Shown: positions 5,738 to 50,421 of the stretch, in pieces
How positions within the stretch are numbered: position 1 is the first letter of the stretch
How the letters are laid out: each line of letters begins with the position of its first letter
Source of the DNA: Enterobacter phage ZX14
Sequence record: PP236086.1
Reading direction: 5' to 3' (one strand)
DNA: 64,000 nt
Notes under the pieces: generated by a model
Database searches by the model: none
The model's input: the letters and a program-made list of their open reading frames with translations, nothing else
Told to the model about the DNA's origin: nothing
Translations under genes and position numbers: made by a program

Positions 5738-6093
5738 TCTGCACCTAATATAAAGAGAATTTCACTGCCACGTTTATCGAATCTACCTCTCATAGATACG
5801 ATATCTTCATTATACCATAGATTTTGTGCAGCAATTTGTTTCAACAATTCGACATGACTACACAAGACTTTAACGATACGACCTTGACGTTGACCGTACC
5901 CGTCTAGCCAAAGACGGAAGCCATTATCATTGCTTTGGATGTTTTTAATATCGCAATCAATTTCATATAGGCCGTGAGGAATAGTATTGAACAAATGAGG
6001 GTTACGTTTGTACCCATCAATGGTCGGAACTGGCCCTTGGACCACTAAAGCCCATTTCTTTTGGACCGGGTCTACATCAATAAGGCGAATCAT
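5734..6093 (-). CDS. hypothetical protein inserted between td and frd
   Basis: ORF chosen from the internal ATG preceded by a GAGGT Shine-Dalgarno. The six-frame ORF extends to 6144. No T4 counterpart at this junction. Confidence 0.45.
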   Translation of the reverse strand: MIRLIDVDPVQKKWALVVQGPVPTIDGYKRNPHLFNTIPHGLYEIDCDIKNIQSNDNGFRLWLDGYGQRQGRIVKVLCSHVELLKQIAAQNLWYNEDIVSMRGRFDKRGSEILFILGAE

Positions 6094-6412
6094 AATGAAC
6101 CTCTGTTTCAGGAATGAAGTAGAACTTAGTGCCTTGCTTTTCAAAGTGGCCGATAATAGTCACGTATGGATCGTCGAATGTTACGTTCTGAACACGCATG
6201 GCTTCAATCCACGTTTTCGTACAGCGAGTAAGATAAGTCGTGAACTGATTAAATGGGGCAAATTCGCCATGGATATAATTAGCGTTCGTAGAGAACAGAC
6301 TTACTTTAATATCAGCCAGAGGCAGACGAAGAGCATAGATGCCTTTATCAAACTGAGGGCCTTGCCACTTAGGTTGTTTCCGGAACTTTTCAATTAGATG
6401 AGCATAATACAT
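6077..6412 (-). CDS. hypothetical protein inserted between td and frd
   Basis: 111-aa ORF. Its start abuts the frd stop. No recognisable motif. Confidence 0.45.
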   Translation of the reverse strand: MYYAHLIEKFRKQPKWQGPQFDKGIYALRLPLADIKVSLFSTNANYIHGEFAPFNQFTTYLTRCTKTWIEAMRVQNVTFDDPYVTIIGHFEKQGTKFYFIPETEVHYDSPY

Positions 6413-17139: not shown

Positions 17140-18258
17140 ATGGAAAAATATATGGCTGGCTTTGGACAGGGATTTGTCCAAGCCACTATTCTATCTGAAA
17201 ATAATGCGGTGAAATACCGCATTAGTGCTTCTGGAAGTTGCACTAAAAGTACAGTCCGTCCTTACATAAAAGTCCAGGACCAGCCTATTTCTATATTAGT
17301 GCGTCCTGGGCTTAATGTTTACATTTTTAATACAACTACTTTAGCTATTGAAGAAACCAAAAACTATATGTTTACAAAAGAAGCATCTTCTAGTAATGAG
17401 GCCTTCGTAACATATATGGAATCTCTTCCGGCTGGCAAGCTAGCTATAATGTTGTCTGAAGGAAAGCTTAATACTGATGATGCTTTAGTTTCATGGTTTA
17501 AATCTAGAAACTCTACGGCTTGGCCTTCTAAATTTGATATCACTAATTTTGATGCGGCTTATACGGCGTTCTATATGACGTCTAAGGCAACTATCACATC
17601 AGAACATGTAATATTCAACGATGGGGTTAAAAATGAAGCTGTAGAGCCCCTGATTGACGTAGTGTATGATTATTACTCTGACATAGGAGCCACCGGTTTT
17701 CCTAAGAGAATATTTGAATTTGCCGAAGAAGCGAGACCGACTGAAACTGGTTTAGCAATAATTAGGCTTCCTACTACAGATTTGCAAACACCTTTAGCTG
17801 ATTATAATCTTAAAAGTGGTGATGTGGTTTATTTTAAATTGCAGCTTCTTATAGATACAACCGATCCATCAGGAATTCCGGCCGGGACTACTCGTGCATC
17901 AGTTAGATTTTTTAATGAGACCACTTTAGTTAGTGATACTACTATAGAAGCCAACATATTAAATTTAGGCGAATGGCAATTATTCGAAAGGGATATAACT
18001 ATTCCTGAAGGAGCTACAAGCTTTACGGTGTATGTGTCTCGACAGAATACAAATGATATTGCTGCCGCTAGAAATTTAGTTATGACTGAAACTTCTAGAT
18101 ACCGATATCCTTTGATGCGTGCATCAGAATTTGGTGTCAATGGTATCAGAAACAACGTATTGATGGAAGATGTTCCGAACGATGAGCTTCTTATTCTTAA
18201 GAATACAGATGCTGATGACCGCGGCATTGTTCGAAGTGCAGAGTTTCGTGAGGTATAA
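17140..18258 (+). CDS. 35: tail fibre hinge protein gp35
   Basis: Start at MEKYMAGFGQG, matching T4 gp35 MEKFMAEFGQG. AGAGGT Shine-Dalgarno. Overlaps the gp34 stop. Confidence 0.9.
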   Translation: MEKYMAGFGQGFVQATILSENNAVKYRISASGSCTKSTVRPYIKVQDQPISILVRPGLNVYIFNTTTLAIEETKNYMFTKEASSSNEAFVTYMESLPAGKLAIMLSEGKLNTDDALVSWFKSRNSTAWPSKFDITNFDAAYTAFYMTSKATITSEHVIFNDGVKNEAVEPLIDVVYDYYSDIGATGFPKRIFEFAEEARPTETGLAIIRLPTTDLQTPLADYNLKSGDVVYFKLQLLIDTTDPSGIPAGTTRASVRFFNETTLVSDTTIEANILNLGEWQLFERDITIPEGATSFTVYVSRQNTNDIAAARNLVMTETSRYRYPLMRASEFGVNGIRNNVLMEDVPNDELLILKNTDADDRGIVRSAEFREV

Positions 18259-22430: not shown

Positions 22431-23078
22431 ATGGCCATGCCAAGTATTTCCATTGTAGACTTAGTATTTGGCGTGCTTGACCGACTCTTTAAAGATACAA
22501 CGGGTAAAGTTCCTTTTACCCGTATTCTTTCCGTTATACTATTATTTGTTATGGCCGTTATTTGGTACAAAGGCCCTGAGCTAATGACCATTTATAAGGA
22601 ATCTCGTTACGAAATTTATTCTGCTATGCAGCAAAAGATTGGTGACGAAAAGTTTGATAAGACTGTTCGCGAACAAGTCCAAATAGTTCATGTCTCCAGT
22701 GGAGCAGATTTTACAGCAGTATATGCATTTCGACCAGTAAACAAAAACTTTTTTGTTGATATGGTCGCTTATGAAGGCGTTCTACCATCTAGTGTGAACG
22801 AACTTAACTTAGGCGGGTATCCAATTGACAAATCGTCAACTGAATATATTAGACATGTAAATGGAGAATATTTTAGTTCAAATACGGAATCAATCTTCCT
22901 TCCAACCAAAAAGAAAACTGACTTCAACTTCATGTTTTCTTGTCCCTACTTCAATCTGGACAATAATTATGCTGGGAACATCAGTTTGATGTGGTATAAT
23001 GATGTTCCCAGGTATAGTAATGAAAGGTTGCAAGCTATTTGTGCGCCAGCAGCCCGTCTGATAGGTCGTTCACGTTAG
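22431..23078 (+). CDS. t: holin t
   Basis: 215 aa. MAMPSISIVDLVFGVLDRLFKD… plus a single TMD and …CPYFNLDNNYAG… match T4 holin T. Confidence 0.9.
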   Translation: MAMPSISIVDLVFGVLDRLFKDTTGKVPFTRILSVILLFVMAVIWYKGPELMTIYKESRYEIYSAMQQKIGDEKFDKTVREQVQIVHVSSGADFTAVYAFRPVNKNFFVDMVAYEGVLPSSVNELNLGGYPIDKSSTEYIRHVNGEYFSSNTESIFLPTKKKTDFNFMFSCPYFNLDNNYAGNISLMWYNDVPRYSNERLQAICAPAARLIGRSR

Positions 23079-30782: not shown

Positions 30783-31056
30783 TTTCGACCTTAGGTGGAT
30801 TTAACCCCTGTGAATGAGAGCCATTGATGTATACATCTTCGATATAAAGGATTCCGTCATAACAACGATCATCAAAATTCAAATCTTCTTTATTGATTTT
30901 GTCCCAATCTACATCAATAAAAATATCATTTGCATATAATGTTCCGGCACCGTGTTTAATGACTATATCTTTACAATACACGTTATGCGCTTCATGTTTT
31001 CCATGAAGAGTCGTATGTTTGATGCCTGGGACTCTATCATTCATAGGGTTAATCAT
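30766..31056 (-). CDS. hypothetical protein
   Basis: Start taken at MINPMNDR, with a GAGGTAAATATG Shine-Dalgarno. Confidence 0.4.
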   Translation of the reverse strand: MINPMNDRVPGIKHTTLHGKHEAHNVYCKDIVIKHGAGTLYANDIFIDVDWDKINKEDLNFDDRCYDGILYIEDVYINGSHSQGLNPPKVENDSEQ

Positions 31057-31063
31057 ATTTACC

Positions 31064-31255
31064 TCAGAATCGTGCGATACGTTTTTCAAGAATGTGTTGG
31101 TATGCACTCATTGTATCAAGCTGTCGGAGAAGCAATTCACGGTCTACTTCATCAAGAGATTTGAAAACAGCACCTACGGTGAACGAACGAAGAGCATTAA
31201 TTTTCAAGGTCAGTTCAGAATGTTCGTCAATAACACGAGATTGGAAACCAGTCAT
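31064..31255 (-). CDS. hypothetical protein
   Basis: 63-aa ORF with an AAGGA Shine-Dalgarno, downstream of the rIIB hairpin. Confidence 0.4.
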   Translation of the reverse strand: MTGFQSRVIDEHSELTLKINALRSFTVGAVFKSLDEVDRELLLRQLDTMSAYQHILEKRIARF

Positions 31256-31291
31256 TTTAAGTCCTTAATAGGGGCCGAAGCCCCATTCAAA

Positions 31292-32320
31292 TTAGTAAGA
31301 ATAGCCATGAATTTCAGAAGTGAATTTCTCGGTAACATCTTCGAGAACTTCATACTGACAAGTACGCATTTTAGCATCGCCGTAATCAACCGGAATACTT
31401 ACTACATCACGTGGATGAACCTTAACTGATACGACACGAGAAGTACTGCAGCTAAAGTGTTTGATGTATGACTTAGAGCAAACATGCAGACCATTTGAAC
31501 AAGTTACTTCATCGTTATCGTTCACACGAGTACGAGGCATTTTAACTGTCTGACCCGGGCTGTTATCGAAAGTACCAGAGTGGTGGTCTTTATAGTCAGA
31601 ACGAACAACTTTCCAACCAATGAAATGGCCATCTTCAGTAAGCTCGATATCGTTAGCAACCAAGAAGTCGAATAGGCGGCTTACAGCTTTAGGGCTTGGG
31701 TTTTCCAACAGATTTTCCAGGAATGGCAGATAGAACTCAAAGTTCTCGCCTTTATTCATGGAATCAAGGATACGGTCAACCAGGCCTGAACGCAGTTCGA
31801 TGTCCTGATAATACAGGGTACCATCAGCAATACGAACATCACCTTTAACGAACTCTTTAACAGCACGTTCGATGTTAATGGTGTCACGAGCCTTACGAAC
31901 CAGTTCTTGTTCTTCAGCGTAAGATTTACCTACGGACTGGCTCAAGAAGGCGAAAGCAGCAGCAAAACCAGGGTGGTCTTTATCTGCGTTCCAAGTTTCA
32001 CGACCCTGAGTAATAGAGATGAACTTAGAGTTTGCGTTCCAGATGAAAGAAGGTTCTGGCGCTTTAGAAATAGGAGCGATAGTAATATTCACATCACCTG
32101 TGATTTGAATTGAACCATCACTTTTAGCAATGAAACGACCACGAGAATCGCGAGCAGGGCCTTTAGAAGCAGGAGCACCTTTAGCGGCTTTAATTACACG
32201 ATAAATGGTATCGCGAGACACGCCATAATCATCAGCCAATTCTTGCTGAGTTTTCAGTTTAGCTTTATAAGTTTGAACAATAGACAGCTTTTGATTTGCA
32301 TTTAAACATTTAACAGTCAT
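31292..32320 (-). CDS. rIIB: rIIB membrane-associated protein
   Basis: 342 aa. …YYQDIELRSGLVDRILDSMNKGENFEFYLPFLENLLENPSPKAVSRLFDFLVANDIELTEDG…MPRTRVNDNDEVTCSNGLHVCSKSYI…MRTCQYEV is near-identical to T4 rIIB. Confidence 0.95.
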   Translation of the reverse strand: MTVKCLNANQKLSIVQTYKAKLKTQQELADDYGVSRDTIYRVIKAAKGAPASKGPARDSRGRFIAKSDGSIQITGDVNITIAPISKAPEPSFIWNANSKFISITQGRETWNADKDHPGFAAAFAFLSQSVGKSYAEEQELVRKARDTINIERAVKEFVKGDVRIADGTLYYQDIELRSGLVDRILDSMNKGENFEFYLPFLENLLENPSPKAVSRLFDFLVANDIELTEDGHFIGWKVVRSDYKDHHSGTFDNSPGQTVKMPRTRVNDNDEVTCSNGLHVCSKSYIKHFSCSTSRVVSVKVHPRDVVSIPVDYGDAKMRTCQYEVLEDVTEKFTSEIHGYSY

Positions 32321-35107: not shown

Positions 35108-35284
35108 TTAATGGCTTAATGGACCCCATCCGCCTTCAATTTTATAAGCTTGCCCACGAACTTTAGTTAATGAACCATCCGGGTTTTCTACTGAAATAGT
35201 AACATATTGAGCAAAGAGAGGTTTCTCTTCAGCCCAAAGATAACCAAATTCACCAGTAGCTAAAGTAATCCAATATTGTTTCAT
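35108..35284 (-). CDS. small late protein (58 aa)
   Basis: MKQYWITLATGEF…GGWGPLSH. AAGGAG Shine-Dalgarno. TATAAATA late promoter 35 nt upstream. Confidence 0.4.
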   Translation of the reverse strand: MKQYWITLATGEFGYLWAEEKPLFAQYVTISVENPDGSLTKVRGQAYKIEGGWGPLSH

Positions 35285-37238: not shown

Positions 37239-37460
37239 CTAGGCTCCCTTACATTTTTTGCATCGTGAATCATGCCATTGTGCAGCAGACATCCCAGAAG
37301 CTAGATAAGCACGGAATTCTTTCTTCGCTTCACGTTTTTGCTTATCTGTCATTGGAACCGGTCGATAATACGAAGATGCTTTACCACTTACTTTCATAGT
37401 GAAAATAAATGCTGCACTTCCGTTATATGGATGTTTACCATATGATTCATCAATTTTCAT
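37239..37460 (-). CDS. hypothetical protein
   Basis: 73-aa basic protein ending in CKKCKGA. Confidence 0.4.
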   Translation of the reverse strand: MKIDESYGKHPYNGSAAFIFTMKVSGKASSYYRPVPMTDKQKREAKKEFRAYLASGMSAAQWHDSRCKKCKGA

Positions 37461-37723
37461 TATTCGAACCTGATAGTAGAGTTCTTAAAGAACATACCAG
37501 AGCAAACAGCACCTTTAACAGGAATGCCTGTAGGGCCTTTAGCTGTGAAACCTGTAGAGAAAGTATCTTTATCAGAACAACTCAACCAAGCGTAGCCGGT
37601 AAACTGAATTTCAGTAAAGCCATTTGCTTTGAGAATTCGTTCGGCCCCAACTTCGTCAGTGCATCCTGTCAGAATACCGATAGACAGAACAGCAGCAATC
37701 AAACCCATTACAAATACTTTCAT
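37460..37723 (-). CDS. putative lipoprotein
   Basis: Signal peptide plus lipobox (…GILTGC). 87 aa. Confidence 0.55.
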   Translation of the reverse strand: MKVFVMGLIAAVLSIGILTGCTDEVGAERILKANGFTEIQFTGYAWLSCSDKDTFSTGFTAKGPTGIPVKGAVCSGMFFKNSTIRFE

Positions 37724-37814
37724 TTTTTAGTTACCTTAATAATTTTACCGCTGTGTAGTTTAATAACCCGGCTTTCGCCGGATTTCATAAAACGAATACG
37801 TGGACGGGTACCCA

Positions 37815-37991
37815 TTAGTAATCACCACTTTTGAGACCATCATAATGAACCGCAGGAGCAGAAACGATACGCTTCATTTGCCCTTCACAATTCAAGAACT
37901 TACATTCGTGTGGATTGTCGCGCTCAGAAATCTTAACATTCTTTTCTGATTTTTCACCACATGCTTCACATTGATAATCATACAGAGGCAT
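37815..37991 (-). CDS. FmdB-type zinc-ribbon protein (58 aa)
   Basis: MPLYDYQCEACGEK…HECKFLNCEG. CxxC…CxxC of the FmdB family. Confidence 0.45.
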   Translation of the reverse strand: MPLYDYQCEACGEKSEKNVKISERDNPHECKFLNCEGQMKRIVSAPAVHYDGLKSGDY

Positions 37992-46411: not shown

Positions 46412-47926
46412 TTAGACAATTGTATCTTTTAAGAAGGATGCAAACAGAGAACCACGACGAGCATAACCAGCATCGTTAGGATGCACAAGGTCATGCGAAG
46501 TGTATTCTTCAGCATTTTCTTTAGTAATCCAGCCTTGGACGTCAACAAACTTCAGTGAATGTTTTTCAGCCTGTTCCATTACAGCCGTACGAATCTTATT
46601 AATTGCTTCTGTTTCACCTTGCGGCGTAGCAGGACCAATTAAAATGACCGGGACTGTAGGGAAATTGGTTTTAACAATTTCAAGAGCAGCGTCCATATTA
46701 GTCTTAAGTTCTTCTACTCTACCTGCTACAGAATCATTATAGCCTAAGCTAAAGATAATATAATCAGGAACTCTAGACAATGTCAGCAATTTATTGGTAA
46801 CACGAGTTGCTGGGACCCTTTCACCGGTAGAGGTCCAGCCAGAACCACCAATACCATCTGCTAATCCGTCTACGCCTAAATGGTCACACATAATACGGAA
46901 ATCGTTAAAGCTTGGCTGAGTTGCTTCGGTACCGAAGGTATATGAATCACCCATCTGCCATACGAATTTACGAGTACGTGGAGGCTTGGACAACGTATCA
47001 GAAGATGAACCTAAGTTCAAGCCGCCGAATGCACTGTTAACGCCTGCTAATGAATATGAGCGTGATTTACGTTCACCGCCCCAATCAACTAAATAGACAA
47101 ATGAAGAACCAGATGAATCAGTAGTTATGCTCTGTGTACCGACTCTTAACCCATCAACATAAAGCTCACAAATAGTATTAAGACCTGCTAATTTAATTTC
47201 AAATTTAGGAGAGTCAGTAACCCAGTTAGCTCTAAATTGTGTGCCATTTCCGATACCATTCCCACGATAACCAGAAGTAGAATCTTTTACATCAGAACCC
47301 CAATAATCGAAAGCAGTATCAGTACGTTCTTTAGAAACACCTGCATACATAGATGTTGCGTTAGTACCACGATAAGTAAGGTTGAATGTTGCACCTGTCC
47401 CTGTCGTTATATTAGCACCATTGTTTCCATTACCCGCTTCAGTAGCACAAGGGTTCGTAGGAGGAGTTGTGTATACACCACCTTGACGGACAGAAGCGGT
47501 TGTTATAGCACCTTCAGCACCTACTGCAGTAACACGAATTAATGTTGGCGCTGATTTAACTCCACCAGAAACATGAATAATATCACCAAACTTATAACCT
47601 GTACCACCATCAACAATTACTGCCGTATCTAAAGCACCACTACCTTTATAAAGATTCGTTGCAGGAGCAGGAGAAATAGGAGCAAATGGAGGGATAATTT
47701 CAGGAAGTTCTGGGATAATTGGTGGTATTACTTCGCCAAACATTACTTCGATATTATATTTTTGCCATTCTACATCCTGTCCTTTTTCAAAGACTGTAGA
47801 ATATAGTGGTTCTTCACTTAAAGAAAGGTTATAAAAAGAGCCTGCTATTTTATGAGCATTTGAATACACCGTAAAATAAACTGATACTTCTATACCCGAT
47901 CTTAACTTCAAATTTATATATTTCAT
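46412..47926 (-). CDS. Soc-domain fusion protein with C-terminal SGNH/GDSL hydrolase domain
   Basis: 504 aa. The N-terminal ~65 aa are homologous to the adjacent Soc (IEVSVYFTVYSNAHKIAGSFYNLSLSEEPLYSTV vs VEVSVAFKVYSDAHRIAGAHYQIFPSEEPAYADV). A Pro-rich linker and Gly/Thr/Asn-rich beta-like middle follow. The C-terminus has GDSYTFG (GDS block) and DLVHPNDAGY (DxxH). Confidence 0.8.
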   Translation of the reverse strand: MKYINLKLRSGIEVSVYFTVYSNAHKIAGSFYNLSLSEEPLYSTVFEKGQDVEWQKYNIEVMFGEVIPPIIPELPEIIPPFAPISPAPATNLYKGSGALDTAVIVDGGTGYKFGDIIHVSGGVKSAPTLIRVTAVGAEGAITTASVRQGGVYTTPPTNPCATEAGNGNNGANITTGTGATFNLTYRGTNATSMYAGVSKERTDTAFDYWGSDVKDSTSGYRGNGIGNGTQFRANWVTDSPKFEIKLAGLNTICELYVDGLRVGTQSITTDSSGSSFVYLVDWGGERKSRSYSLAGVNSAFGGLNLGSSSDTLSKPPRTRKFVWQMGDSYTFGTEATQPSFNDFRIMCDHLGVDGLADGIGGSGWTSTGERVPATRVTNKLLTLSRVPDYIIFSLGYNDSVAGRVEELKTNMDAALEIVKTNFPTVPVILIGPATPQGETEAINKIRTAVMEQAEKHSLKFVDVQGWITKENAEEYTSHDLVHPNDAGYARRGSLFASFLKDTIV

Positions 47927-48006: not shown

Positions 48007-48255
48007 TCAACCAGCAGGTTCTTCAGGTTCAGCTGGAACACCGACAAACATCGCGGCATTCTTGGTAGCCCAATCTTCTGCAGTTTCAACTACATCTGCA
48101 TAAGCAGGTTCTTCAGACGGGAAAATCTGATAATGTGCACCAGCAATACGGTGTGCATCAGAATATACTTTAAAAGCAACAGAAACTTCTACACCTTTTA
48201 CTTCACCAGATGGCAGAGTATGATCGAAAGTTTTGATATTTACATAACCGCCCAT
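48007..48255 (-). CDS. soc: small outer capsid protein Soc
   Basis: 82 aa. GYVNIKTFDHTL…VSVAFKVYSDAHRIAGAHYQIFPSEEPAYADV matches T4 Soc. Confidence 0.85.
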   Translation of the reverse strand: MGGYVNIKTFDHTLPSGEVKGVEVSVAFKVYSDAHRIAGAHYQIFPSEEPAYADVVETAEDWATKNAAMFVGVPAEPEEPAG

Positions 48256-48302: not shown

Positions 48303-48830
48303 TTAATAACCACGGTCTTGACGAGCAAAGTTTTCTGCGTTCTTCAGATGGTAAAGCTTGTAGATTTCTTCTGCGTCCATACCAAGAGCCATGAACTTAT
48401 TCAAGAAGAAATGAAGCTGATCAATGAGTTCGAATTTAATTTCAAGCTGGTCTTCAGGAGACAGGTCTTTAATCTTTTTAGCCTGCATTTCAACATGCCG
48501 TGCTTTCCATGGTTTCCAGACAGCAGACGCTTCTTTTTCACCATTGCTCATGCCACCGAGTGCAGTGTACAGTTCACGGGTTTCATCAGCAAGATAATCA
48601 TCTTGTGCACGCAGCCAAGCCAGAACTTCACCTGCGGTTTCCAGCGAATCTGGATGGCGATTGCTTTCTGGTTTGTCTTTAGCCAGACGAACCTGCAGAG
48701 ATTTCTGCATATCAAGCATTGCCTGCAGTGGGTCTTCATTGCCACGCAACATACCGTAATATCGTCCAGTCGCCTGGTCTAAAGCCGCTTTATCTTTTAC
48801 CAGTTGAGAACATTCGTTAAAGTGTGCCAT
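48303..48830 (-). CDS. 56: dCTP pyrophosphatase gp56 (MazG-like)
   Basis: Start at MAHFNEC with an AAGGAAAT Shine-Dalgarno. …GEKEASAVWKPWKARH…SPEDQLEIKFELIDQLHFFLN…FARQDRGY is near-identical to T4 gp56. Confidence 0.85.
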   Translation of the reverse strand: MAHFNECSQLVKDKAALDQATGRYYGMLRGNEDPLQAMLDMQKSLQVRLAKDKPESNRHPDSLETAGEVLAWLRAQDDYLADETRELYTALGGMSNGEKEASAVWKPWKARHVEMQAKKIKDLSPEDQLEIKFELIDQLHFFLNKFMALGMDAEEIYKLYHLKNAENFARQDRGY

Positions 48831-48875
48831 TTTATTTCCTTTCAATTCAAGTAGAGATTAATTATAACATTATGT

Positions 48876-49160
48876 TTATTCAGCAACTAAGCCTAAAAGA
48901 ACAGATGCATTACGGAAATGTTCTATCTTTTCATATTTTGCCCAGACAGCATCTTTATCTTCGACAAAGTCGAAATCTGTTTTAACGCGAAGATTCAAAA
49001 GGCAACCCATGATATCGTTCAGCTCATCTGTCAGACGCTGGCGATTTGTTTTACCTTCGTATTCGGAATCTAATCCGAACTGCATAATCTTAGAACACAA
49101 CATTGCAACTTCGTTGCATTCTTCGCCTAGTTTTAAAAAAGCGTGTTGTTCTTGGTTCAT
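48876..49160 (-). CDS. hypothetical protein (possible MazG-like fold)
   Basis: 94-aa ORF. EECNEVA and a helical pattern weakly reminiscent of MazG. Confidence 0.35.
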   Translation of the reverse strand: MNQEQHAFLKLGEECNEVAMLCSKIMQFGLDSEYEGKTNRQRLTDELNDIMGCLLNLRVKTDFDFVEDKDAVWAKYEKIEHFRNASVLLGLVAE

Positions 49161-49182: not shown

Positions 49183-49190
49183 TATAAATA
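49183..49190 (+). promoter_or_regulatory. late promoter TATAAATA
   Basis: Exact TATAAATA upstream of the plus-strand small membrane ORF. Confidence 0.5.
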
Positions 49191-49206
49191 TTGAATGGAG
49201 GTGGTT

Positions 49207-49416
49207 ATGGGGACGATATTTTATCAAATCTCGAAACTTGGTAATAAAGAACGTAAAGCAATGATAGGCTTTTTGGCTTTCGATGTAATCGTCTGGAATT
49301 TTCTTATAGTTCCAGTCGCAGCAACTCAAGGGGTATTACTCCCTCAAGTTACATTAGAGCACATTATGTCTATTATTAGTGCATTCGGTGGTTTAGCTTC
49401 TAGCGTACCGACTTAA
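49207..49416 (+). CDS. small late membrane protein (69 aa)
   Basis: TATAAATA at 49183-49190, then a GGAGGTG Shine-Dalgarno and ATG at 49207. Hydrophobic (…GFLAFDVIVWNFLIVPVAAT…). Its 3' end is antisense to the end of gene 61. Confidence 0.4.
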   Translation: MGTIFYQISKLGNKERKAMIGFLAFDVIVWNFLIVPVAATQGVLLPQVTLEHIMSIISAFGGLASSVPT

Positions 49417-50421
49417 TCTCATTTTAGCCATTAACCCCTGTTCGGTGTTCTTGTTCATGTAGTCAAGAATTTGTTCAGGGGTTGCTCCATCATCTTTAAT
49501 CATATCATTTATATCCTTCGAAGGCCATGGAGCCTTGTCCCAGAATAAAATCCTTTCACCTGCATTGACAAGTTTAGTCATACGTTTAATGGTATCAGGC
49601 TTTCGGGCTTCGTTATCCATCACCCAAACACGAGTCTCTTTAAATGGAACTATATTTAAGTCCATAGAGCCGCCTGTTATCGCGATAGAATTAGGTATGA
49701 ATAAACTATCAATAGGCCCTTCCATCACCCAGACACGTTTACGTTCATCAACTGTGTCGAGTCCATAGATTTTTGTTGCATCGTCGTGTGCTTTGATTGT
49801 GATGTATTTCTGTGGAGCATCTTTGCGTAGAGCTCGTCCTTGGAATGATTCGATGTCTTTGTTGCTGTTGAAGATAGGTATAACCAACCGCGGTTCATTC
49901 GTTTCATTACTGTACGTCCCAGGTTTCACAGAGTTAACAAGAGCAGGCCACTGCATAGTAAACCATAACCGATGCCATTGGTTCTCAGGAATGAACCTGG
50001 AACGAACATATTTGATTATAGGATGGTCTGGTTGTAATTTGTCAAGACGAGTACAATACTCTAATTTTTCGATAACAGGCATTTTTGCTTTAAATTTATC
50101 CGAAACTTCAACTTCTTTTCTTTCCGGCTTAGCAAAAGTCCTTTCTTTCCTTATCTCAAGAATGTATTCTCGATAAAGGTCCTCTTCAAATTCTTTCAAG
50201 TACTTACTCAACCATGCATCATATTCACAGTTAAAGCAATGAACACGTATTCCTGAATCTTTAGTAGGATAAGCCCAGAAACGAGCTTTATGCATGTCTT
50301 TTTGGGAGTCACCACAAACCTTACAACGACAGTTTAATTTGAAGTCGCTCCCGGTTACTTGTCTGAATTTAGGCTGATGAGATAAAGCCCTTAATGCAAA
50401 TTCACGGTCTACAAAACTCAT
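49393..50421 (-). CDS. 61: DNA primase gp61
   Basis: 342 aa. Zinc ribbon CRCKVCGDS…CFNCEY and TOPRIM. …QGRALRKDAPQKYITI…DNEARKPDTIKRMTKLVNAGER…QGLMAKMRLS matches T4 gp61. Confidence 0.9.
   Translation of the reverse strand: MSFVDREFALRALSHQPKFRQVTGSDFKLNCRCKVCGDSQKDMHKARFWAYPTKDSGIRVHCFNCEYDAWLSKYLKEFEEDLYREYILEIRKERTFAKPERKEVEVSDKFKAKMPVIEKLEYCTRLDKLQPDHPIIKYVRSRFIPENQWHRLWFTMQWPALVNSVKPGTYSNETNEPRLVIPIFNSNKDIESFQGRALRKDAPQKYITIKAHDDATKIYGLDTVDERKRVWVMEGPIDSLFIPNSIAITGGSMDLNIVPFKETRVWVMDNEARKPDTIKRMTKLVNAGERILFWDKAPWPSKDINDMIKDDGATPEQILDYMNKNTEQGLMAKMRLSRYARS

Follow-up and report, generated by a model that had tools for sequence, protein, structure and literature searches.

What does a short reading frame that faces a DNA primase gene from the opposite strand contribute to a T4-like phage: a protein, an antisense RNA, or nothing at all? 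The question is raised by a plus-strand open reading frame (ORF) of 69 codons at 49207..49416 of the 64,000-nucleotide (nt) stretch of Enterobacter phage ZX14 analysed here (PP236086.1; the whole stretch is referred to below as the window), which runs into the 3' end of the convergent primase gene 61. The initial annotation of this DNA proposed that a late promoter drives a hydrophobic protein of 69 amino acids (aa) with a role in lysis or superinfection, and that the same transcript could act as antisense RNA against the primase mRNA. The explanation that we favour, with moderate confidence, is that the ORF is a conserved late gene, orthologous to dam.1 of T4, which would encode an inner-membrane protein with an accessory part in the lysis or envelope stage, and that its overlap with the primase gene is a by-product. 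We infer the late expression, the membrane location and the function of the 69-aa protein from sequence comparisons. The points of interest are the conservation of the gene among the T-even genera examined, a gap in the annotation of T4 and the possible descent of the protein from a holin-like membrane module.

The reading frame and its start codon

The source phage belongs to the genus Kanagawavirus (Tevenvirinae). On the plus strand the order of elements is TATAAATA, which constitutes the predicted gp55-type late promoter (49183..49190, predicted transcription start at ~49196), followed by ttgaat, the Shine-Dalgarno (SD) sequence GGAGGTG (49198..49204, with its GGAGG core at 49198-49202, 4 nt short of the start codon), gtt and the ATG at 49207, whose 69-codon frame closes at TAA 49414-49416. 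All of these elements of the initial annotation were found in the sequence. The mechanical ORF list gives a longer version (49195..49416, 73 aa) owing to an in-frame upstream ATG; this start was rejected, as it coincides with or precedes the predicted transcription start, has no SD and is not present in the relatives, and the ATG at 49207 was adopted because both the proteins of the relatives and the phrog_2024 family profile begin at the methionine encoded there. The 69-aa protein is identical to a database entry named 'hypothetical protein [Enterobacter phage ZX14]'. The neighbours of the ORF in the window are the primase gene and a MazG-like gene. The surroundings had been described as consisting otherwise entirely of minus-strand early genes, which holds locally, for ~11 kb on each side, and fails for the window as a whole, where plus-strand late genes (tail fibres, holin t) are present at 13-23 kb.

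A conserved protein-coding gene

The profile search identified a relationship between the translated ORF and phrog_2024 (E 2.1e-24 for the 73-aa reading, residues 5-67 of which align to positions 1-64 of the 65 in the profile; E 1.7e-24 for the 69-aa form), to which the T4 protein is also related (E 5e-31). The protein is a member of this catalogued yet uncharacterised family (phrog_2024, T4 Dam.1). Relatives were found by tblastn in 950 phage records, and profile searches returned 121 clusters at 90% identity from 5.8 billion proteins and 23 clusters at 50% identity from 1.84 billion representatives. Single-protein locus searches in IMG/VR yielded 7 close loci only, and tblastn searches of the phage collection with two distant members (P0138 and P0128) revealed no further cultured relatives. 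Conservation in relatives, on which the initial annotation had made the case for the ORF depend, extends across at least seven named genera of the Tevenvirinae (the loci examined come from Kanagawa-, Tequatro-, Mosig-, Dhaka-, Gapriver-, Jiaoda- and Gelderlandvirus, together with unclassified metagenomic contigs). In every locus examined the ORF lies on the strand opposite to its neighbours and converges on the 3' end of the primase gene, in some lineages with one extra gene intervening between the two, and every ortholog examined carries GGAG, GGAGG or AGGAGG at the site that matches the SD of ZX14.

An ORF of this size could also be fortuitous. According to this alternative, a chance ORF and a chance TATAAATA have arisen in an AT-rich spacer, and the conservation reflects minus-strand regulatory signals located between gene 61 and the downstream MazG-like gene; the ORF is indeed short and omitted from the T4 and JS98 reference annotations, and the number of exact TATAAATA occurrences in the window equals the chance expectation (5 observed, 5.15 expected from shuffled sequences). 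However, the ratio of non-synonymous to synonymous substitution rates (dN/dS) is 0.07-0.30 for those pairs that are unsaturated at synonymous sites (e.g. 0.12 for loci L008/L010, with 19.5 synonymous and 10.5 non-synonymous changes, and 0.18 for L006/L017), and the column entropy by codon position (1.20, 0.78 and 1.46 bits) shows the variation typical of coding sequences, with the third position varying most. Since most of the ORF is located in a spacer with no gene on the opposite strand, this signal of selection must be its own. Conservation at the protein level persists down to 24-30% identity, at which the W, N and P residues are still invariant, a strong SD is present in every lineage, and the ORF has its own PHROG family. 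The PHROG match, the homologs beyond T4-like phages, the codon-level selection and the homology detected by hhalign (see below) effectively refute the chance origin, which we regard as barely credible; the ORF is almost certainly a genuine protein-coding gene.

The T4 ortholog was identified at 17738-17938 (+) in NC_000866 (3239-3439 in our locus L002); it encodes 66 aa, follows GATAAATA and AAGGAGG, and overlaps the stop codon of gene 61 by 4 nt. No gene is annotated in the gap between dam and 61 in NC_000866.4 and AF158101. The T4T record (HM137666, ADJ39749) names the ortholog dam.1, many newer records list a 'hypothetical protein', one record has a 'holin family protein', and one UniRef name is 'Holin'. 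The ZX14 and T4 genes lie on the same strand, converge on the primase stop codon, belong to phrog_2024, encode proteins of similar length (69 and 66 aa) with a basic N-terminus, a predicted transmembrane segment and the motif WN..P...G..[LI]P, and are both preceded by a NATAAATA box and a strong SD. They differ in that the proteins are only ~31% identical, the promoter box is the exact TATAAATA in ZX14 and GATAAATA in T4, the overlap with the primase gene measures 24 and 4 nt, respectively, and the downstream neighbour is the MazG-like gene in ZX14 and dam in T4.

Because the ortholog is unannotated in the T4 RefSeq and AF158101 records, it was left out of two functional screens of T4: the gene lists of CRISPRi-ART (PMC11879866) and HIDEN-SEQ (bioRxiv 10.1101/2025.11.20.689424) both pass directly from dam to 61, so that it was not scored in either. 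The latter study covers a comparable gene of another phage, bas37_0144, a 201-nt plus-strand ORF with a 4-nt overlap with the primase gene of the T4-like phage Bas37, which received insertions at 20 of its 24 TA sites and is listed as non-essential with no significant conditional effect (bioRxiv 10.1101/2025.11.20.689424); we take it as an ortholog of the 69-aa ORF on the grounds of position and size only. The gene was not described in the literature found on dam.1, on unannotated small ORFs of T4, on transcription-start maps of T4 or on Cappable-seq.

A predicted late promoter

As the exact box is no more frequent in the window than expected by chance, its meaning has to be drawn from position and conservation. 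Among the 21 distinct 60-nt regions upstream of the orthologs, 20 contain a NATAAATA whose end is 12-33 nt away from the ATG (the exception is Gelderlandvirus, with ATTAAATA), while ATAAATA is present in 1.2% of windows of equal size from the same loci, and the box has been kept although the flanking sequences have diverged. The base that varies among the orthologs (T, A, G or C) is that at position -13, which is also known to vary in T4 late promoters (of the 50 listed, 32 are perfect and 9 have A at -13; PMC2988020). The T4 consensus comprises a box at about -13 to -6 with no requirement for a -35 element (PMC2988020), and ZX14 exhibits an exact match to this gp55-dependent type at 49183-49190.

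The layout of the promoter is that of bona fide late genes. Seven of the 10 NATAAATA sites in the window sit 16-36 nt upstream of an SD and ATG, and they precede gp34-like and gp36-like tail-fibre genes, the T holin gene (PF11031), soc, a Soc-lipase fusion gene, a 58-aa ORF of the phrog_4369 family and the 69-aa ORF itself; thus, the motif is a good predictor of late genes in the ZX14 genome. In the holin gene t (22431..23078) the distance between TATAAATA and the ATG is 21 nt, an arrangement like that in front of the 69-aa ORF, and in the record of phage Lutter a plus-strand promoter of 8 bp is annotated 20 nt ahead of the orthologous gene. No 5' end mapped to the promoter site was found in the literature searched. 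Taken together, the conserved box and the late-gene layout support the proposal of the initial annotation, and the ORF is likely to be driven by a late promoter. Late in infection the gp55-loaded RNA polymerase would start from the TATAAATA box at ~49196 and produce a short plus-strand mRNA with an 11-nt leader carrying the strong GGAGG, on which translation would begin at ATG 49207 and yield the 69-aa protein.

Two other genes behind late boxes deserve a comment. The ORF at 35108-35284 (-) is the second small one that follows an exact TATAAATA (35328-35321, -) amid early genes; it encodes 58 aa, matches phrog_4369, a family of unknown function, with E 1e-27, and in its leader a short hairpin, GAGGtatttttgCCTC, separates the box from the SD. 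The gene at 46412-47926 (-), just downstream of the ordinary soc (48007-48255), has AATAAATA (47959-47952, -) 25 nt ahead of its ATG and encodes a 504-aa protein in which an N-terminal Soc domain (PF16855, E 1e-9) is fused to a C-terminal GDSL/SGNH lipase-esterase domain (PF13472, E 5e-17). This composition of domains suggests a capsid-displayed esterase; the annotation of phage Q7622 reads merely 'lipase'.

A predicted single-pass membrane protein

The 69-aa protein exhibits a basic N-terminus (K10, K14, R16, K17) followed by the sole strongly hydrophobic stretch of the sequence, approximately residues 19-41 (Kyte-Doolittle maximum over 19 residues of 2.11, at residues 19-37), which corresponds to one predicted transmembrane segment. 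Behind this helix there is a conserved G-x2-L-P-x-h-x-h-[D/E] segment and then a weakly hydrophobic tail. The family alignments show that W30, N31 and P36 are invariant and that A38, G42 and P46 are nearly so; the family signature, W-N-[FYL]-x3-P ... G-x2-[LI]-P combined with a single hydrophobic segment behind a basic N-terminus, is present in full in the ZX14 protein. The AlphaFold2 (AF2) model, calculated from an alignment of 21 sequences, comprises helices at residues 3-9, 13-41 and 50-61. The profile search against the PDB sequences revealed only chance matches to transmembrane segments (E >= 0.09).

Hydropathy, the distribution of charges and the helices of the AF2 model support the membrane part of the initial functional proposal, and the product is very likely an inner-membrane protein. 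According to the positive-inside rule, its topology is likely to be N-in, C-out: the basic N-terminus would presumably be cytoplasmic, one transmembrane helix with the invariant W-N-x4-P would span approximately residues 19-41, and the G-x2-L-P-x-h-x-h-[D/E] segment together with a short amphipathic tail would be exposed on the periplasmic side.

The overlap with the primase gene

The 3' end of the ORF and that of gene 61 (49393..50421, minus strand, 342 aa according to the ORF list) overlap tail to tail by 24 nt (49393..49416), just as the initial annotation had claimed; the primase was identified through phage Q7622, in which it is annotated as a DNA primase subunit and whose DNA is 97% identical across the region. 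Could the RNA rather than the protein be the main product of the locus? A late plus-strand RNA reading into gene 61 might shut off or destabilise the primase mRNA in cis, with the ORF playing a secondary role. Apart from the overlap itself, this idea gains from the lack of a T-run intrinsic terminator on the plus strand after the ORF in the ZX14 window, which makes read-through plausible, and from the fact that at certain sites in T4 the two strands are known to be transcribed, though not at the same time (PMC2988020). However, the overlap is not conserved: it amounts to 24 nt in ZX14, 4 nt in T4 and several other loci, and is absent from Gaprivervirus EAWsc9 and Klebsiella phage RCIP0102, so that conserved complementarity with gene 61, as expected of a cis-antisense RNA, was not observed across the relatives. 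Moreover, where the ORF does not abut the primase gene, a hairpin directly follows its stop codon (L005, L008, L010, L019 and L025); these hairpins are GC-rich in most of the non-abutting lineages, the clearest T-run is found in L019, and in Metamorpho (L010, Jiaodavirus) a terminator is annotated at this very site. The convergent neighbour is not even the primase in L019 (a 124-aa gene) and L025 (Dam), and a function exerted by RNA only would leave the purifying selection at the protein level and the invariant residues unexplained.

Late antisense transcripts of T4 early regions, for which Belin et al. 1987 is reportedly the reference, provide a further comparison. As in these cases (e.g. the gene 32 region), the late promoter of the ZX14 ORF faces against the surrounding early genes, but the ZX14 transcript would carry a conserved ORF under selection, and in several lineages termination would occur ahead of the antisense target. 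In our opinion a selected antisense function against the primase mRNA, as put forward in the initial annotation, is improbable. Some antisense read-through into the primase gene is possible in ZX14, though it is not the conserved feature of the locus; we interpret the overlap as a by-product of convergent gene packing and not as a regulatory device.

The extra gene between the ORF and the primase gene encodes a protein of 116-124 aa in L010 and the unclassified metagenomic contig L019 and the Dam methyltransferase in L025, another such contig, and the GC-rich hairpins between the convergent genes (L010 1650-1669, L019 ~2207-2240, L025 ~745-775) are probably bidirectional terminators. In ZX14, a stem-loop without a T-run, AACCCCTG...CAGGGGTT (49426..49486, given for the plus strand and possible on both), is located 10-70 nt past the stop codon of the ORF and thus within the 3' end of gene 61, where it is encoded by the primase C-terminal codons for TPEQ and QGL; the 125-nt segment that contains it (49396-49520) folds at -24.3 kcal/mol (z = -3.3). 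A similar hairpin was found in T4, L007, L009, L021 and L023, and not in L003, L006, L017 and L018. The stem-loop was considered as a conserved 3' element of the late transcript and rejected as such, since RNAalifold revealed no consensus structure for the 3' end of gene 61 among 13 lineages, and we treat the element as lineage-restricted. It could nevertheless form the 3' structure of the late transcript in ZX14 or be relevant to the 3' end of either convergent transcript.

A possible relationship to holins and role in lysis

What, then, might the protein do? The search among representatives extended the family to distant members of 50-99 aa, all of which match phrog_2024 and among which proteins of 96-98 aa form a subfamily that is frequent in enterobacterial chromosomes (prophages). 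The T4-type family could be aligned with the last 45 residues of the 96-98-aa family (hhalign probability 98.2%, E 5e-14), and this profile comparison robustly supports a predicted homology between the T4-type proteins and the C-terminal part of the longer prophage proteins. The latter lead to holins: PF11351 (GTA_holin_3TM) is matched by 22 of the 43 members of the extended family (E <= 1), always in the C-terminal part of the profile and with a best E of 0.002, although all these matches remain under the gathering score (14-15 bits compared to 24.8), and the holin family phrog_3427 is matched by 8 of the 43 members (best E 5e-4). No other Pfam family is matched by more than 6 of them. It is the C-terminal third of the two holin profiles that the longer relatives (96-98 aa) match, and the 69-aa protein is homologous to the matching part of these relatives; on the other hand, the ZX14 protein itself has no match to either profile and is predicted to possess one transmembrane segment instead of three. 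The AF2 model comprises one long helix and a short C-terminal helix, and in the hhalign comparison the 69-aa protein corresponds to the last membrane module only. Its origin would then lie in the C-terminal membrane module of a holin-like family.

The analysis of genomic neighborhood was carried out for the non-T4 relatives. In phages and prophages alike their gene occupies the end of the element, behind a J-type tail-tip gene, and in 5 of the 7 informative contexts a T4-type lysozyme gene (PF00959) is found within ~2 kb. Even in L038, where its remaining usual neighbours have been displaced, the gene has kept its place next to the lysozyme/SegE pair. The association with lysozyme is suggestive only, because all the contexts are drawn from a single broad type of phage and the other neighbours resemble structural proteins more than spanins. 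In the annotation of an E. coli prophage context by PGAP only a 'hypothetical protein' and a 'glycoside hydrolase' are named. A complete holin-spanin cassette was considered for these contexts and dropped, as the neighbours (~180 and 105 aa) look soluble or structural and exhibit no lipobox or transmembrane segment and only a weak match to 'minor tail protein'.

The prophage-end module itself, seen in sipho-like prophages of Enterobacteriaceae (L029-L031, L032, L034-L036, L038 and L040), has a recurrent composition: a J-type tail tip, a ~90-aa protein with a transmembrane segment and a coiled coil, the T4-type lysozyme, a homing endonuclease of the SegE-type GIY-YIG or Endo VII kind, proteins of ~190 aa and 105 aa, and finally the phrog_2024 member. 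The homing endonuclease gene is repeatedly found directly next to that of the lysozyme, which it separates from the remainder of the module.

Lysis and its inhibition in T4 belong to textbook knowledge, and the list of their components (T, E, RI, RIII and the spanins) is regarded as complete. ZX14 encodes its true T holin at 22431..23078 (PF11031, E 2.8e-64), while the Pfam scan revealed no match of the 69-aa ORF to this Phage_holin_T profile. T, the antiholins RI and RIII and, by prediction, the ORF product are all late-expressed membrane proteins of T-even phages, and the genes for T and the ORF product have the same promoter layout, but there is no sequence similarity, T is a protein of 215-218 aa with a large periplasmic domain whereas the ORF product has 69 aa and almost no soluble domain, and T is needed for lysis whereas the positionally equivalent ORF of Bas37 is dispensable. 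With a normal T holin in ZX14 and T required in T4, any role in lysis is expected to be accessory. The dispensability in Bas37 and the separate T holin argue against a primary-holin role. Residing in the inner membrane, the protein would thus have an accessory part in the lysis or envelope stage and modulate membrane events, rather than act as the main holin, given that the canonical T holin is encoded separately.

Several observations weigh against a lysis-related function or limit the interpretation offered here. T4 phages defective in t do not lyse, T being necessary for T4 lysis, and so the 69-aa protein cannot be a self-sufficient holin. The link to holins is transitive, and its second step remains under the curated thresholds; the three transmembrane segments that characterise PF11351 are reduced to one according to hydropathy; and neither the window protein nor that of T4 has any match in Pfam (up to E <= 10), NCBIfam or PADLOC. 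Neither an endolysin nor a holin gene adjoins the gene in T4-like phages, and the non-T4 neighborhoods all belong to one broad prophage type, are not independent and include structural-looking genes. The AF2 model is of low confidence (pLDDT, the predicted local distance difference test score, of 62), too low for a fold search. With respect to expression, the putative promoter box of T4 is the variant GATAAATA, and no support for the ORF from transcripts, ribosome profiling or proteomics was found in any phage.

Or perhaps the protein is a late inner-membrane protein with a role other than lysis, such as superinfection exclusion or the blocking of incoming DNA, counter-defence against a membrane-associated host system, or membrane-associated assembly? 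Such a role would rest on the same evidence for the gene, the promoter and the membrane location as the explanation that we favour. In Bas37 the equivalent can be dispensed with on laboratory E. coli and had no significant conditional effect in the screens listed, a pattern often seen in accessory genes for interaction with the host; the non-T4 relatives occupy an accessory prophage end after the tail-tip gene, a frequent site of moron and exclusion genes; and the similarity to holins is under threshold. Yet the known T4 exclusion genes imm and sp are early genes whereas the ORF has a predicted late promoter, the PADLOC search gave no match for the window or T4 protein, and both the repeated vicinity of lysozyme genes and the holin profiles, which are consistently the best matches, point elsewhere. 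We regard the non-lysis role as possible, if rather doubtful.

A lysis-related or holin-like function, the second part of the initial proposal for the protein, has indirect backing in the homology to prophage proteins that are near lysozyme genes and show sub-threshold similarity to holins, and we put it forward only tentatively. In its strongest form, the protein would be an overlooked late holin-like protein, conserved in the Tevenvirinae genera examined and derived from the last membrane module of a three-transmembrane holin family, which acts together with T, RI and RIII in the timing or inhibition of lysis or in membrane depolarisation; this we consider unlikely, and if true, it would have escaped attention because the T4 reference annotation omits the ORF. 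What the analysis provides is a predicted small late membrane protein that is under purifying selection in the Tevenvirinae genera examined and missing from the T4 RefSeq and AF158101 records and from the gene lists of the T4 screens. If the gene does affect lysis timing or envelope physiology, it will add a component to a paradigm system; otherwise it will serve as an example of how gaps in a reference annotation pass into functional genomics. For the window itself the practical consequence is small: the appropriate annotation of the ORF is that of a putative late membrane protein, Dam.1-like (phrog_2024), and not that of a primase regulator.

Other genes in the window

Downstream of the primase gene there are two tandem genes of the nucleoside-triphosphate pyrophosphohydrolase type, 48876-49160 (-) and 48303-48845 (-). 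The former encodes the 94-aa MazG-like protein, which matches the C-terminal half only of phrog_4856 (positions 84-180 of 195) and whose position is taken by dam in T4, while the latter is a homolog of the gp56 dCTPase. Elsewhere in the window, the plus-strand ORFs 37409-37834, 6020-6397 and 31022-31429 (125-141 aa) are located outside longer minus-strand ORFs and exhibit no late box, obvious SD, Pfam or PHROG match; they may be spurious or represent orphan genes.

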